From a virus (Duplodnaviria > Heunggongvirae > Uroviricota > Caudoviricetes), in IMG/VR virus record IMGVR_UViG_2537561977_000033: DNA of 45,340 nucleotides; one strand, written 5' to 3'. The notes under the pieces were generated by a model. The model was given only the letters and a program-made list of their open reading frames with translations, had not been told where the DNA came from and did not search any database. A program made the translations under genes and the position numbers. Positions 2,304 through 40,585 of the stretch are shown piece after piece; positions within the stretch are counted from its first letter, which is position 1; each line of letters begins with the position of its first letter.

Positions 2304-2591
2304 TATAATAAACTTACTTTTTTATCATTTTTCCACTTTAACAACATTTTGCTCCACTTTTCCACGACCAAACAACTTGAAATCTGGTTAAAATAACACG
2401 CAACACTATTCTTCTTCCTTGAGTCCGCCCGGAACTCGAAAAACAAACCGAGTTAAAGCCATTTTTCACAAAATCGATTTTGGGTTTCACCAAAATTACG
2501 GGGTTGCATACGCATTCGTTTATTTTCGAACGTGTAGGTAATGCTGCCAACTTACTGATTTAGTGTATGATGGTGATTTTAAGGTGCTTGC

Positions 2592-2867
2592 GTGGCTTCC
2601 ATTTCCATCAGATGTCCTTCCTGCTCCGCTACTGAAGGCGTGGTGCGTAACGGCAAAAGCACTGCCGGACATCAGCGCTATCTCTGCTCTCATTGCCGTA
2701 AAACATGGCAACTACAGTTCACTTACACCGCCTCTCAGCCCGGTACGCACCAGAAAATCATTGATATGGCCATGAATGGCGTCGGATGTCGCGCCAGTGC
2801 ACGCATTATGGGCGTTGGCCTCAACACGGTTTTACGTCACTTAAAAAACTCAGGCCGCAGTCGGTAA
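2592..2867 (+). CDS. insA: IS1 InsA, 91 aa
   Basis: [43 protein letters not shown]... matches IS1 InsA from memory. Confidence 0.85.
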
Positions 2868-3289
2868 CCTCGCGCATACAACCGGGCAGTGATGTGATTG
2901 TCTGCGCTGAAATGGACGAACAGTGGGGCTACGTCGGTGCTAAATCACGTCAGCGCTGGCTGTTTTACGCGTATGACAGGATACGGAGGACGGTTGTGGC
3001 GCACGTCTTCGGTGAACGCACTCTGGCCACACTGGAGCGTCTTCTGAGCCTGCTGTCGGCCTTTGAGGTCGTGGTATGGATGACGGATGGCTGGCCGCTG
3101 TATGAATCACGCCTGAAGGGAAAGCTGCACGTTATCAGCAAGCGTTACACTCAGCGCATTGAGCGACATAATCTGAATCTGAGACAACATCTGGCAAGGC
3201 TGGGACGGAAGTCACTGTCGTTCTCAAAATCGGTGGAGCTGCATGACAAGGTCATCGGGCATTATCTGAACATAAAACACTATCAGTAA
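2786..3289 (+). CDS. insB: IS1 InsB reading frame, 167 aa (normally made as InsAB' by frameshifting)
   Basis: [16 protein letters not shown]...[13 protein letters not shown]... matches IS1 InsB; overlaps insA in another frame. Confidence 0.85.
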
Positions 3290-3395
3290 GTTGGAGTCAT
3301 TACCAACGTGTACATACAAATATGCACAAAAATAATCATAATTATTTTCTGAGATGCATTATGATATGAACACCAATTTCGTATAGAGTCTCACT

Positions 3396-3986
3396 ATGTC
3401 TCGAATTTTTGCTTACTGTCGGATATCAACGCTGGATCAGACCACCGAAAATCAACGCCGGGAAATCGAAAGTGCAGGTTTTAAAATCAAACCTCAGCAA
3501 ATAATCGAAGAACACATTAGCGGCTCAGCAGCAACCAGTGAGCGTCCTGGTTTTAACCGGTTGCTTGCTCGCCTGAAATGTGGTGATCAATTGATTGTGA
3601 CAAAACTGGATCGCCTTGGTTGTAATGCAATGGATATCAGGAAAACAGTGGAACAACTGACCGAAACAGGTATCAGAGTGCATTGCTTAGCATTGGGGGG
3701 CATTGACCTGACCAGTCCAACAGGAAAAATGATGATGCAAGTAATTTCAGCAGTCGCTGAATTTGAACGAGACCTTTTACTTGAACGCACTCATTCCGGG
3801 ATAGTAAGAGCCCGCGGCGCAGGGAAACGTTTTGGTCGACCACCTGTGTTAAATGAAGAACAGAAACAGGCGGTATTCGAACGAATTAAGTCAGGTGTAA
3901 GTATAAGTGCCATTGCCCGGGAATTCAAAACCTCGCGGCAAACCATTTTAAGAGCCAAAGCAAAACTTCAGACACCTGACATATAA
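3396..3986 (+). CDS. pin: Pin/Gin/Hin-family serine DNA invertase, 196 aa
   Basis: [20 protein letters not shown]... with the catalytic Ser in the YCRIS motif and a C-terminal HTH; matches Pin of E. coli cryptic prophages. Confidence 0.85.
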
Positions 3987-4082
3987 AAATAATCTCGGTG
4001 TGAGATGCTTTACGTCTTCCAAGCCCCCTTCCTTGCCGTAAATGGAAAGATACATCTAATTATAGAATTTATATGTTTTACC

Positions 4083-4658
4083 CTACGGCAGTGCTGGCCA
4101 TTCAATATCCTGTGCAGTTGACGTATCAACACGGTTCAGCAATACCCGATACTTTTTCCATGCTTCCAGCAACGAGATTTCTTCCTCCGTTGCAATTTCC
4201 AGATCTGCAGCATCCTGAAGCGGCGCAATATGCTCACTGGCTACCTGCATCAGGTTGTTTTTTGTTTCTTCCGCCTCCCGGATCCGGAACAGTTTTTCTG
4301 CTTCCGTATCCTTCACCCAGGCTGTGCCGTTCCACTTCTGAAACTCCCCTTCCGGCGATAACCAGGTAACATTTTCCGGTAACGGACCGAGTTCAGAAAT
4401 AAATAACGCGTCGCCGGAAGCCACGTCATAAACCGTTTTACCCCGATGATCTTCAACGAGATGCCACGATGACTCATCACTGTTGAAAACAGCCACGAAG
4501 CCAGCCGGAATATCTGGCGGTGCAATATCGGTACTGTTTGCTGGCAGACCTGTATGAGGCGGAATATATGCATCACCTTCACCAATAAATTCATTAGTTC
4601 CGGCCAGCAGATTATAAATTTTTATGGTCCGTGGTTGTTCACTCATTCTGAATGCCAT
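4083..4658 (-). CDS. tfa: tail fiber assembly protein, 191 aa
   Basis: Immediately downstream of the fiber gene with start/stop overlap at 4656-4660; sequence matches remembered TfaQ/lambda Tfa. Confidence 0.8.
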
Positions 4659-6313
4659 TATGCAAGCCTCACAATATAGTTAAATGCGATGTTTTTGACG
4701 GTGTTTTCCGCGTTACCAGCAGCGTTAACGGTGATGGTGTGTCCATGTGAACCAATCGCAACGGAGTGCGTATGAGCACCAATACCGACAGTATGTGCAT
4801 GTGCGCCTGCGCTTGCAGCAGTACCGGACAGCGAGTGGGTATGAGCACCATCTGATGATGTCTTCCCTGCATTACGAGTCTGGCCACTACCGCTTGTTGT
4901 GCTCATAATCCCCGCGCTTAGATTTGAAATCGCGGTATAACCATTAGGGAAAATGCTCGTGTTCGTGCCACCAAATGCACCGGAACTCTTGTGTTGGTGC
5001 GCACCGGCACTATTTGCGGTCCCGCTAATACTATGGGTATGCGCCCCGGTGTTATTCGTGGATTTGGTTCCGTAATCAAACGACGATGTGGTTTTCGTCC
5101 CCAAATCCGTACTGGATGCGCTGGCGCTGTGGGTGTGCGATTTAATGCCGTCCTGTTCCTGAGTTAATACGGCCCGACCACTGGCGGGCTTGCCCTTAAT
5201 CGTCCAGCCACGCATATCAGGGATCACGCCTGACGGATAAGCAACTGCAAGTTTCGGGTATGCAGATTTGTCAAAAGTCTGCCCCTGCATCAGGGCATAA
5301 CCAGACGGAACGGTATCTGATGGCCACGGGATTGGTGCACCGACTGGATAAAACTCTGCAGGAGGATGAGCCGAGGTGTAAAGCTGCGCCCACGGCGACC
5401 AGTTTGCGTCGGTCGTATCCCGTCGTGAACGAATAAATGCCGGAGCATGAGCACCGCTTGTACCACTCCAGCCGATGAGTAACTCACCTTCGCCAACGGC
5501 TGTCATCCCTTTCAGGTGAATGATATTTCCATACGCTGTTGGATATCCGTTGTTATACACCTCGTATAACTCAAGACCTGCTGCCCCCTGCGTATTGTCT
5601 GTCAGCGCGGTTACCCGACCTTTTGAAGCCAGATTAACTGATGATACTGCTGTTCCACCTGACGGTAACGCCCCGATCTCTGATGCCGTTGGCTTATTTC
5701 TGGAGTTATAGTCCCTTCGCCAGCCAGGTGAATAATCTGTTCCGTGATTAATATAGGTAAACTGGGCGTTAGTTGTTCCACCACCAGTGGAGGTGGTCGG
5801 TGTGGTAATGCGGATCGTCATCGCTGACTTTATCCCCATTACTTCAATGACAGCTCCGGCGAGATGAATATTACCGCAGTCAGTATCAGTAATGATTTTA
5901 TTATTGCCATAAGACCAGGACCCCTTGCACATCCAGTAGGGATGGTTAAATGCTCCCTGAGAATCCAGCCACTCGATAAACTGTGCAGTCGTCCAGTTTC
6001 CTGTTGTTGTGCTTACTGACCCACCGAAGGCACGGCAGGCACCAATATTTTTCGTAAAGGTATCTTTGCCAGGGATATCCGCACCGTTCTGATCTTTCTG
6101 CAGACGTTTCTCAGCATTGTCATTGGCTGCTTTTACTGCCTTTGGCGTTGCCGCCAGCGTTTCAGACGTGCTGTTGGTCGCGCTGCTTAACTGGATTATC
6201 CCTTTGTGCTGTCGTTGCATCCTGTGCGGTGTATTTCCCGTTAGCCAGGTCATACGCGGCCTTAACGGCTTTTGGCGTTGCCGCCTGTGACTCGGAAGTG
6301 CTGTTGGTCGCAC
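4658..6313 (-). CDS. stf: side tail fiber, C-terminal distal part; frame differs from the upstream stf part, real translation start unclear
   Basis: C-terminus ...[40 protein letters not shown] matches lambda Stf; carries the conserved box [26 protein letters not shown] near its N-terminus; first ~35 codons look like out-of-frame read-through. Confidence 0.7.
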
Positions 6314-6335
6314 TACTGAGCTGGACTATCCCCTT
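6141..6335. repeat. two direct copies (~64 bp each, ~130 bp apart) of the conserved tail-fiber recombination box
   Basis: 6141-6204 and 6271-6335 align with about 15 mismatches and one 1-nt length difference; both encode ...[11 protein letters not shown]...ATPKAVKAA in different frames. Confidence 0.8.
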
Positions 6336-7736
6336 TTTCGTCGTGCTCGCATCCTCAAGCGCCACGGCGGATGCAATATCCTCTGCCCGTTTTGCCGCTG
6401 TCTCGGCGCGCGTTGCCGCGGTTTCTGCCGTACTTTTGCTCTGTGCTGCCGCTGTCGCACTGCCAGCAGCCTCTGTCGCCTTCGTGGATGCTGTCGTGGC
6501 GCTGCCCTTCGCTGCTGACGCCTGTCTGGTCGCCTCATCTTTTGAAGCTGACGCCGATGATGCCGATGAAGCCGCCGAACTGGCGGACGATGCGGCAGCC
6601 GTTTTTGAGGATTCTGCGCTGGTTTCCGACGCTTTCGCGTTCGTCTCGGATGTCTTCGCTGCGGAAGCAGACCTCGCTGCTGCACTGGCCTGTTCAGTGG
6701 CTTCGCCAGCCTTCGTTGTGGCTGTTGAAGCAGACGAGGCGGCACTTTCTGCCGACTTTCCGGCAGCGGTGGCACTGGCTGAGGCCTGCCCGGCACTTGT
6801 TGACGCGGTACTGGCAGATGATGCAGCCGCTGTTTTTGAGCCTGCCGCAGCTGAGGCACTCTGTCCCGCTGCCGTTTCAGAAGACCTGGCGTTCGTCTCG
6901 GACGTCTTTGCCGCCTTCGCGGAATTTCCTGCCGCCGTTGCCGAGGAAGCGGCACTACTGGCGCTTGATGATGCGTTCGTTTCTGATGATTTCGCTGCCT
7001 CTTTTGAGGCCGCCGCATCCCGGGCTGAGGTGGCAGCTTCTGACGCCTTTGTGGTCGCTGCGGATGCAGAAGTGGCTGCAGATTTTTGTGACGCTGCCGC
7101 ATTCGTTTCTGACGTTTTCGCCGCACCGGCACTGGTAGCTGCCGCGCTTTTTGAGGACTCTGCAGCGGCAGCACTTTTTGATGCTTCAGTAGCCTTTGTT
7201 GATGCCGTTCCTGCGCTGGAAGACGCTGACTGAGCCGACGTCGCGGCCTGCCCGGCTGATGTGCTGGCTGCACGTGCTGAGCCTGCAGCATCAGTCGCAT
7301 GGGTTGCCGCCTCACGGGCTGATGTGCCGGCATCGCCGGCTGACTTCTTCGCGGCTGCCGTGTTCTGTGCCACCGCGGACGCGTTACGCGCCACCTCTTC
7401 CACCATCAGCTCAAAACGGCGCAGTGCCTCCGGACGGGCATCATCCTCCGTCATGGCACCGAGAAAATCATTCAGCGTACCGGGTCGGGAATCTTCATAC
7501 ACGGTGATGGTCCCGGCATGTGACGGCGGGAATCCTTCCACCAACAGAATAACGCTGTACTGACCGTACTCAACGTCCATACTGTAACGCCCGGCTTCAT
7601 CCGGATTTTCTGAGGCCAGCGTGTTCACCACCACCGTGGTGCTGTTACGTTTTGCTTTCAGCTGGATTGTGCAGTTCTGTACCGGTTTTCCTGTGCCGTC
7701 TTTCAGTACACCTGAAATCTTTACTGCCATATTCAC
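6162..7736 (-). CDS. stf: side tail fiber, N-terminal proximal part, 524 aa, Ala/Ser-rich repeats
   Basis: N-terminus [37 protein letters not shown]... matches lambda Stf; ends shortly after the conserved box, inside the second copy of the repeat. Confidence 0.75.
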
Positions 7737-26340: not shown

Positions 26341-26656
26341 ACTACCACTGCTGGTTCAGAGTTAAAAAAACTATGATTTTTTCATGATGTTACCGTAGTA
26401 TGTGAGTATCCATCGAATAGACACCAAGCAAAAAAGCTCCCGAAGGAGCCTTCATTTTCACTTTTTTAAATCCAACGACAGACGGCTGGCATTTAAGTAT
26501 TGTGAAATATTATCAAATGTAATCATCATTGATTTACAAAAGATACATTTTGCCCCGAAAGGATTCATGTCAGAAACATCAAAAGATGATGTTCTATACT
26601 GGGAACCATGACAACACGGGCATCTAAAGTGAATATGGTTTGTAATATTGTCTACC

Positions 26657-26869
26657 TCAAAGCGCCACTACATGAACAGCGGCAGGACCTTTAGGTCCGT
26701 TCTCAATACCAAATTCAACTTCCTGATTCTCAGTTAATGTTTTGAAATCGTTGCTCTGAATTGCTGAGAAATGGACAAACACATCTTTGCTGCCATCTTT
26801 CGGCGTGATGAAACCAAAACCTTTTTCAGGGTTAAACCATTTCACTAAACCAGTCATTTTGTTAGACAT
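26657..26869 (-). CDS. cspI: cold-shock protein (CspA family), 70 aa
   Basis: [38 protein letters not shown]... with RNP1/RNP2 motifs; matches my memory of CspI. Confidence 0.8.
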
Positions 26870-27230
26870 AATTATTACCTTTTGAAGAAATTAGCCCTTG
26901 GGCAGAATGGTCCGAAAAAAATATCAGAGAGAAAAACCAACAAGGAAATCTCAAGAGGTACAAATAATAAAATTATAACAATGACTGCTTCAGATAAATT
27001 TGTAACAAACCAGAACACCATTAACGCATGATTAACCACCCATAGCAAGGATTACTTTTGTAAAGAAAAACACAGCAATGAAAGAATAGCTTTATTTATT
27101 AATAAAACGTGTCATTCTGATTAAGACCTTTTATCTTACCCTTAAGATTTCAGGAATTTTGGCTCATGGAAGAGTCCTTTTTATTCAAATTTTACATTCC
27201 GCGATGTAAATGTTCCGATTTAATATTACC

Positions 27231-29175: not shown

Positions 29176-29537
29176 TTGATTTTATTAGTAACAAGTATTT
29201 TTATATTTTAATAATATATTTAAAGCAGATAATAAAAAACCCGCCTGAGCGGGTTTGAGATTGTGGTGCTTTTTGTGGGAGTCATCCACTTACGCACTTT
29301 GTTTTGCCATGCCAGCAGTTAGCTTCTGCTGTAAAACTATTCATGCAGCAAACCTGCACTTCACCACAATGGTTAGCATACTTTTCCTGATTAAGATTTT
29401 GCCAAATATGCTAGCCATTGTTTCATGTATTGGACCTCCTTACTTTTTATTAAAGAGATCCAATATTCACTACTCTGTCCGTATCTCTACTCAGGCATCA
29501 GCCTTCTTCGTTATCGTATACAGACGAGCGATGAATT

Positions 29538-29753
29538 TTAATCAGTAATGATGACATTTGCTGCTGCAGGACCTTTAGCACCACTCTCTATAGAGAAGGT
29601 AACCTTTTGACCTTCAAATAAGGTTCGATAATTATCATTCTGAATCGCAGAAAAATGCACAAACACATCTTTACTACCATCAACAGGAGAAATAAAGCCG
29701 AAACCTTTATCAGCGTTAAACCATTTTACTAAACCAGTCATTTTATTTGACAT
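29538..29753 (-). CDS. cspB: cold-shock protein (CspA family), 71 aa
   Basis: [51 protein letters not shown]... matches my memory of CspB. Confidence 0.8.
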
Positions 29754-30052
29754 TCTACATTCCTTAACTTGAGCCTTTCGGCATAAATGGTTTGCATAAC
29801 AGAAACGACTTCGTACTTAATTGGAGAGACTCAAAGAAGGAATAAGTGAATAACACCTGAAATGAGAACTGCTTTAGTAAACTACTTCGTATATCGTCTG
29901 TTCTTCAAACCGACGCAATCATTAACGCATAGTTGAACATATGAAGCAATGTTTATTTTAGACATCCAGCCGTCTTCAACCCCATCAAAAACTATAGCTT
30001 TCTTCAGGAACGTGTGTATAGTGCGCCAAGTTATCAGTATTAAGGAATTTTT

Positions 30053-40532: not shown

Positions 40533-40585
40533 TTTCTGGTGACGTTTGGCGGTATCAGTTTTACTCCGTGACTGCTCTGCCGCCC
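40533..40585 (+). ncRNA. dicF: DicF small regulatory RNA (ftsZ-targeting), ~53 nt, followed by a T-run
   Basis: TTTCTGGTGACGTTTGGCGGTATCAGTTTTACTCCGTGACTGCTCTGCCGCCC matches the DicF sequence as I remember it; between the ydfB/C region and dicB. Confidence 0.8.

Follow-up and report, generated by a model that had tools for sequence, protein, structure and literature searches.

In this study, we analysed a 45,340-nucleotide stretch of Caudoviricetes DNA (IMG/VR record IMGVR_UViG_2537561977_000033, here called the window), and in particular its small serine recombinase gene (3396-3986, + strand), which lies beside the tail fibre assembly gene tfa and the side tail fibre gene stf. The original prediction had regarded this gene as an orphan Pin invertase. 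Our results suggest, with a probability that we put at about 0.7, that it is a PinQ/PinR recombinase gene belonging to a decayed module of a resolvase and its res recombination site at a mosaic boundary, and not a Hin/Gin/Cin/Pin invertase that has lost its invertible segment. The family to which the gene belongs is large and coherent; it is that of the res-site resolvases, and includes TnpR of a subgroup of the Tn3 family and stand-alone resolution modules of plasmids and chromosomes. A res-recombinase module of about 0.7-0.85 kb would have come between tfa and ydfK/attP in the phage lineage, and the adjacency to stf and tfa would be a boundary between mosaic modules with no functional tie to fibre switching. 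The module has decayed in that lineage, in its DNA by erosion of res subsite I with partial retention of subsites II and III, which overlap the promoter, and in its protein by the replacement with Cys of a catalytic Arg (R71 of the Tn3 and gamma-delta resolvases). In the window, an IS1 additionally parts the site I remnant from subsites II-III, and stf is frameshifted.

The recombinase is a protein of 196 aa with the Pfam domains Resolvase (PF00239, E = 2.5e-36) and HTH_7 (PF02796, E = 2e-11). It differs from K-12 PinQ by one amino acid (R3Q) and from K-12 PinR by another (A159V), being 195/196 identical to each, and with at least 99% protein identity and the synteny ydfK-pin-tfa-stf at the end of a lambdoid prophage it is a member of the PinQ/PinR group. 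A megablast search of 5,426 complete E. coli genomes identified the locus as one end (ydfJ-ynfT-ydfK-pinQ-tfaQ-stf-lom-J) of a Qin-type prophage that, like Qin, sits in ydfJ, and the gene order is the same in K-12 Qin and Rac. The colinear block of pin, gap and tfa was found in 2,035 of these genomes. The gene is also present at 99.5% identity in the inducible phages mEp460_ev081, 2H10, Tritos and HannyBb and in the PhiR series. The observed layout is real, and the object is already known as the pinQ/pinR arrangement of Qin/Rac-type E. coli prophages.

The recombinase showed 38% identity to PinE, the invertase of e14; for Cin and further invertases of phages the values were 35-39%. Hin, Gin, Cin and PinE are about 60-70% identical to each other, and by amino acid identity the recombinase falls outside this tight cluster. 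Homologues were encoded on 1,868 plasmids, 1,653 of which carried one at 60-90% identity, and a scan of one genome per species gave 80 loci in gamma-, beta- and alpha-Proteobacteria at 62-99%. Gene context was compared at 85 loci of the family, and the res sites were scored in 78 non-Qin loci. Identity to the plasmid and Tn3-family relatives was 72-84%. A whole or partial tnpA gene was present at 22 of the 85 loci; on a Klebsiella IncF plasmid (L013), a 78%-identical gene is divergent from a Tn3-family tnpA of 994 aa with 160 bp between them, and the same divergent layout was found at nine further loci. A pEA29-type Erwinia plasmid carries a 74%-identical gene near parA/parG. Only in the E. 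coli PinQ lineage did the gene adjoin tfa, the one exception being a weak and distant tfa-like match at locus L081. The relatives are called resolvases here on the basis of their architecture and context. The original prediction expected a Gin/Cin/Pin-type invertase beside a segment of alternative fibres, and this expectation did not hold; the name Pin is misleading because the protein is 38% identical to PinE and 60-85% identical to a res-linked family that is often linked to tnpA or par genes as well. Scores against PDB sequences were tried as a classifier and left the choice between invertase and resolvase ambiguous, and a search of NCBIfam gave only sub-threshold matches (Mpi, XisF and others) that did not discriminate. 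Some recombinases (P0004-P0008 and locus L095, 6001-6591) are chimeric, with a plasmid-type N-terminal part including Arg76 and a PinQ-type C-terminus, which suggests gene conversion between plasmid-borne and prophage-borne copies.

The res array of the relatives was derived from an alignment of 80 upstream regions. It begins with site I, TGTCCGAAAC-N6-GTTTCGGACA, near -114 and continues with a 32-bp dyad near -74, a TATAAT box and a short third dyad that abuts the start codon. The res of Tn3/Tn501 is reported to have three subsites, with subsite III next to tnpR, the crossover in subsite I, promoters inside the array and autoregulation by the resolvase (PMC7157771). Site I was present with at least 14 of 20 matches in 66 of the 78 non-Qin loci. 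Within 4 kb on either side of the gene in all 85 loci, exactly one site I was found at 60 and two were found at none; one site per locus and never two is the pattern of a resolvase and not of an invertase. A clean three-part res also lies upstream of a 61%-identical recombinase in Erwinia phage LS-2018a (L008, 6880-7000), where the half-sites are GTACTAAA instead of GTCCGAAA. This looks like a case of co-variation of site and protein within the family.

With the IS1 removed, the ydfK-pin intergenic region of the window is colinear with that of the relatives. The remnant of subsite I, the crossover site of the family, lies at 2507-2532 (+), where TTTTCGAACG can still be made out as the right half, the left half having decayed; the remnant is colinear with TGTCCGAAATCGACCGGTTTCGGACA of a plasmid relative that is 84% identical (alignment A2). 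Site I reached at most 6.3-9.6 bits in the Qin-type loci (6.3 bits in the window), compared with a median of 27.4 bits in the 78 others. Subsite II is an eroded TGCACAAAAATAATCATAATTATTTTCTGAGA at 3323-3354 (+) with two half-sites and a 12-bp spacer, which aligns with TGTACGAAAGTAAGTGAAATTAATTTCGGACA of the family and scored 8.3 bits against a family median of 22.5. It is followed by a -10-like TATGAT (3360-3365, +), where the family has TATAAT, and by subsite III, TGAACACCAATTTCGTATA, at 3367-3385 (+). Both the -10-like box and subsite III are near the consensus. Subsite III is nearest to the gene and is the best-kept part, with columns conserved throughout the family, and its right half TATACGAAAT scored 10.3 bits. 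There is no res-like site elsewhere in the window and no second copy of res. These data support the descent of the upstream region from a res site, of which no intact copy is present, and the protein would have no substrate in cis here.

T180S and V187A are the only departures of the recognition helix of the recombinase from the family consensus (alignment A3), and the relatives use TGTCCGAAA. Since the helix is nearly unchanged, the sites would have decayed and not co-evolved with the protein. The upstream region at L019, from another E. coli strain, is a less eroded variant, and the one at L095 is chimeric and partly of the plasmid type; site I is degenerate in both. The L095 prophage is inserted at a different chromosomal site, near prfC/dinI, and carries an IS66 in tfa.

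The catalytic set known for Tn3 resolvase (Y6, R8, S10, D36, R68 and R71; PMC2794168) is incomplete in the window protein. Y7, R9, S11, E39 and R73 are present, the Glu for D36 being a conservative change that is found throughout the family, but R71 is replaced by Cys76 (codon TGT, 3621-3623, +), as seen from LDRLGC against LDRLGR in the HMMER alignment with gamma-delta resolvase and Gin. Arg occupies this position in 114 of the 120 closest clusters and at 77 of the 85 loci. Cys76 was found only in prophage lineages, namely the PinQ/PinR/phage lineage and a second one (P0009), which is 85% identical and also lies next to tfa. In Tn3 resolvase, R71 is among the six most critical residues, and the R71A and R71K mutants showed no detectable recombination and cleaved about 1000-fold more slowly (PMC2794168). 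By analogy, the PinQ-type protein would be a poor catalyst, although the Tn3 mutants are Arg-to-Ala and Arg-to-Lys and not Arg-to-Cys. The ratio of nonsynonymous to synonymous substitution rates (dN/dS) was 0.37 between the two Cys76 lineages, compared with 0.15-0.19 in the comparisons with the plasmid type, which suggests that the constraint on the protein has been relaxed but is not absent.

No invertible segment and no pair of crossover sites had been noticed in the original prediction, and this was confirmed by matrix, pattern and inverted-repeat searches. The position weight matrix (PWM) of the Hin type was built from 11 half-sites of hix, gix, cix and pix; pix was read from e14 and cix from the annotated P7 record, and half-sites of hix and gix were added to these. 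Across the whole window, nothing rose above chance with these site models: the best 26-mer scored 11.0 bits, compared with 26-29 bits for real sites and a mean maximum of 11.7 bits in shuffled sequence. The pattern AAACCNNGGTTT with up to two mismatches gave 21 matches where 23.9 were expected, and no inverted repeats were found around tfa and the 3' part of stf. The single-orientation set of one stf and one tfa was likewise confirmed, as was the convergence of tfa and the recombinase gene across a gap of 96 bp (3987-4082), in which both PWM and terminator scans were negative. No second, oppositely oriented fibre/tfa set was found here or in Qin, Rac, mEp460 and the sampled genomes. Kirigo et al. 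likewise report that a BLAST analysis gave no inversions in Qin or Rac (PMC12529663). The enhancer region annotated in P7 cin is well conserved in pinE but not in pinQ, which carries a 12-nt insertion there; Fis sites are too degenerate to be excluded from sequence. A literature search with the half-site string returned a cloning primer only. Because the recombinase descends from a resolvase on our interpretation, no invertible fibre segment is to be expected beside its gene.

The boundaries of the module can be placed on both sides of the gene. Nucleotide homology to an IncI plasmid relative runs from -56 of the gene to 39 nt past the pin stop codon. The gap between pin and tfa is the same in Qin, Rac, mEp460, Tritos and HannyBb, save for one base and a 1-nt difference in a run of A. 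In Tritos and HannyBb, pin (99.5%) is accompanied by a stub of about 110 nt from the 3' end of tfa, and then by unrelated fibre genes. Conversely, tfa without pin is common, and the homology of such loci starts at about 4094, some 12 nt inside tfa. It follows that the mosaic module of pin is distinct from that of the fibre genes.

Several points weigh against the resolvase interpretation. We know of no member of the PinQ-type resolvase family that has been biochemically tested. In HMMER comparisons, PinQ had a slightly better score against Gin (106 bits) than against gamma-delta resolvase (84 bits), and the scores of the Tn3 and gamma-delta resolvases against PinQ were low in general (80-84 bits). 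PinQ carries the invertase-like GRPP motif, and the half-site core of family site I, TCCGAAAC, is similar to that of pix, TCCCAAAC. The protein is probably under some selection, as dN/dS is 0.37 and not 1 and the gene is maintained at 99.5% identity in temperate phages that are functional. The loss of catalysis is argued from substitutions in Tn3 other than the one present here. In addition, Kirigo et al. (NAR 2025) reported that PinQ expressed from a plasmid raises the inversion of the 1,797-bp P segment of e14 from about 30% to 88% and gives protection against T2, the resulting StfE2 blocking the adsorption of this phage (PMC12529663). This result speaks for some activity in trans.

It has accordingly been proposed that PinQ is an active invertase with its substrate elsewhere, inverting an e14-type P segment in trans to produce the chimeric StfE2 and block T2 adsorption. 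The rise to 88%, the lack of protection without stfP, stfE or e14, and the induction of pinQ by T2 (PMC12529663) speak for this model, as do the near-identity of the window protein to K-12 PinQ, from which it differs by one amino acid, and the likeness of the half-site cores mentioned above. We nevertheless consider it rather doubtful. Deletion of pinE left 1.5% of the P segments inverted with pinQ and pinR intact, so that the segment was locked and native inversion depends on PinE, and deletion of pinQ had little effect, with 22% inverted against 30% in the wild type (Table S4, PMC12529663). The bias to 88% is unlike the equilibrium of a reversible invertase, and overexpressed PinE gave 49% (PMC12529663); the bias seems to fit selection or modulation better than inversion at equilibrium. 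We found in that report neither a catalytic-mutant control nor a test of PinQ in a pinE-deleted host (PMC12529663). The Cys at the R71 position stands against the model as well, and with the family matrix the pix sites reached no more than about 5 bits; their form, AAAC-N4-GTTT, is 2 bp shorter than the N6 arrangement. Furthermore, the 45-kb window holds no e14-type segment. PinQ-tfa is present in at least 2,035 genomes, but close e14-type P segments (at least 95% identity) were found in at most 479 records, and since the carriers of PinQ far outnumber the close P segments, e14 is not a general target. Taken together, Cys76, the resolvase ancestry and the data of Table S4 mean that direct catalysis by PinQ is not established. 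The original prediction that the recombinase is retained without its substrate or acts in trans is still a fair summary in this respect, with the addition that inversion of the e14 P segment in trans by K-12 PinQ, which is nearly identical, is now in the literature (PMC12529663) and that direct catalysis remains unproven.

The explanation implicit in the original prediction, an orphan Hin/Gin/Cin/Pin invertase stranded by the deletion of an ancestral invertible segment that held another stf'-tfa' set in inverted orientation, appears very improbable to us. It draws on the orientation of stf and tfa towards a convergent pin, which is as in P1/P7; there cin and S are convergent, and cixL extends over the 3' end of cin. 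A crossover site placed in the P1/P7 manner over the end of the recombinase gene was considered and rejected: there is none in the gap, which is essentially the same in Qin, Rac and the phages and whose first 39 nt are part of the recombinase module. A weak half-site, TTTTCGTAAAGG, lies at 6049 in stf (10.6 bits) on the codons of TFTKNIG, as called from the translation of the open reading frame (ORF), and other fibres carry the crossover at an N-L-G motif (L-E-N-L-G-L-G at pixL of e14 StfP). It is a lone half-site, however, and is most simply explained by conservation of the protein motif. The identity of 38% to PinE, the unconserved enhancer region with its 12-nt insertion and the lack of a crossover site in the gap or elsewhere in the window all oppose this explanation. 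The relatives at 60-85% identity are linked to res and to tnpA, none of the 85 loci has two inverted sites, the upstream region of the window is a colinear res remnant, and the sampled E. coli genomes show a single colinear layout. The evidence from the family already contradicts this explanation.

A protein that still works as a phage resolvase on a diverged res with drifted half-sites, for example to resolve circular dimers or double lysogens in tandem, is also improbable in our opinion. Functional phages do keep the gene together with the same upstream region, and dN/dS is below 1. The clean res of LS-2018a, with its half-sites GTACTAAA, and a weak ParA-like match in that locus (25% over 210 aa) indicate that such a system can serve phage or plasmid replicons. 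On the other hand, the recognition helix is almost unchanged relative to relatives that use TGTCCGAAA, and yet the left half of site I has been lost, and the Cys at R71 applies to this explanation also. The IS1 puts 776 bp between site I and subsites II-III, and a Tn3-type synapse is incompatible with 776 bp inserted between the res sites. Lambdoid phages, which integrate, are not known to require the resolution of dimers.

Returning to the decayed resolvase module, the protein most likely does not act as a dedicated invertase. Most likely it has been kept to bind DNA, one example being autoregulation at the remnant of subsites II and III, and/or for an indirect effect on other recombination systems. 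We propose tentatively, as a possibility that we consider less likely than not, that PinQ and PinR are catalytically crippled descendants of res resolvases kept by lambdoid phages as DNA-binding factors. The reported anti-T2 effect would then be indirect, for example through biasing or stimulating the inversion of the e14 P segment by PinE or through action as a regulator, with no strand exchange by PinQ itself.

The palindrome near the gene was another subject of the original prediction, which placed it at 2468-2485. It is an imperfect palindrome of 18 bp, CACAAAATCGATTTTGGG, at 2467-2484, 165 nt downstream of ydfK and upstream of the res remnant, and it is single-copy in the window. It was rejected as a crossover site of either type, as it scored 2.5 bits with the Hin PWM and poorly with the res matrices and aligns with DNA outside res in the relatives; its counterpart in alignment A2 is DNA of the IncI plasmid relative that does not belong to res. 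In the diverged lineage (upstream regions of L019 and L095), the palindrome reads CAAAAAATCGATTTTTGG, where positions 3 and 16 have changed together and the dyad has been kept; this is a single event.

The IS1 of the window (768 bp, 2537-3304, +) was recognised by its terminal inverted repeats, its insA/insB ORFs and its junction sequences. It has an 8-bp target duplication, AACGTGTA, at 2529-2536 and 3305-3312, and it lies between the remnant of subsite I and subsite II, where IS-free genomes have uninterrupted sequence. Strain EA2, the closest complete genome (L002), has an IS1 at 3278-3975, between ynfT and ydfK, and the IS1 insertions of EA2 and the window are independent. The stf gene (4658-7736, -), with the Pfam domains phage_tail_N, Phage_fiber_2 (a fibre repeat) and Collar, is not intact but inactivated: 2 bp are deleted at 6205/6206, where the window reads CCCTTT^GTGC and relatives read CCCTTTCTGTGC. 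The deletion was called by alignment with the intact stf of E. coli E200139 and phage mEp460, and it splits stf into overlapping ORFs at 6162-7736 and 4658-6313. Either the stf deletion and the IS1 indicate that the prophage is decaying, or the deletion is a sequencing error.

The tail fibre assembly gene (4083-4658, -) encodes a protein of 191 aa with the Pfam domain Caudo_TAP (E = 3.6e-43) and is annotated as tfaQ in the matching genomes. A full-length match to the candidate small RNA (sRNA) family RF02111 ('IS009') was found at 4117-4315 (-), with 220.9 bits against a gathering score of 117, and lies wholly within the coding sequence of tfa, in its 3' half. Also in the 12 kb at the left end of the window are ydfJ' (1-1284, -), a ydfK/ynaE-type gene (2037-2303, +) and, beyond stf, lom and then J. 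The rest of the window has ORFs of the tail, head, lysis and early regions, including an ORF of 823 aa where mEp460/Tritos have their exonuclease gene and one of 431 aa at the position of the integrase, which runs to the right edge; the window is a nearly complete prophage from J to int. Two leaders of the cspA thermoregulator type (26630-27014 and 29522-29914, -) belong to cold-shock gene paralogues in the late region, and the DicF sRNA is at 40534-40585 (+); both the leaders and DicF are as in K-12 Qin. The E. coli pinQ-tfa block was also seen at 99% identity in contigs of metagenome-assembled genomes labelled Alistipes, Draconibacterium and Caldithrix (L016, L017 and L018), where it is most likely the result of contamination or mis-binning.

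Among known systems, the locus is closest to PinQ of Qin, PinR of Rac and the copies in mEp460_ev081, 2H10, Tritos and HannyBb, with which it shares the upstream erosion, Cys76 and the gene order ydfK-pin-tfa-stf-lom-J. It differs from them in the IS1 within the res remnant and the stf frameshift. In K-12 Qin, most of stf and of the tail genes is gone, whereas the prophage of the window is nearly complete. It resembles the TnpR/res and plasmid multimer-resolution modules in the combination of Resolvase and HTH_7 domains, the identity of 72-84% and the upstream order I-II-(-10)-III-ATG, but site I is eroded, sites II and III are weakened, R71 is replaced by Cys, tnpA and transposon ends are lacking and the setting is a lambdoid prophage. 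With Hin, Gin, Cin and PinE it has in common the small serine recombinase fold, the GRPP arm motif, about 38% identity, the position beside fibre genes and, as in P1/P7, the convergent orientation; the inverted pair of 26-bp sites and the second fibre/tfa set are absent, and the enhancer region is not conserved.

The arrangement itself is routine, since more than one in three complete E. coli genomes carry a pinQ/pinR locus of this kind. What our analysis offers is a correction, because under the name 'Pin' the protein is taken, by readers and in a recent experimental paper, for an invertase of the Hin type. Descent from a res resolvase would explain the lack of an invertible segment beside the gene and predicts that the protein has weak catalysis or none. 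If the effect of PinQ is indirect, as tentatively proposed above, the published 'recombinase-activated defence' would name the wrong catalyst.

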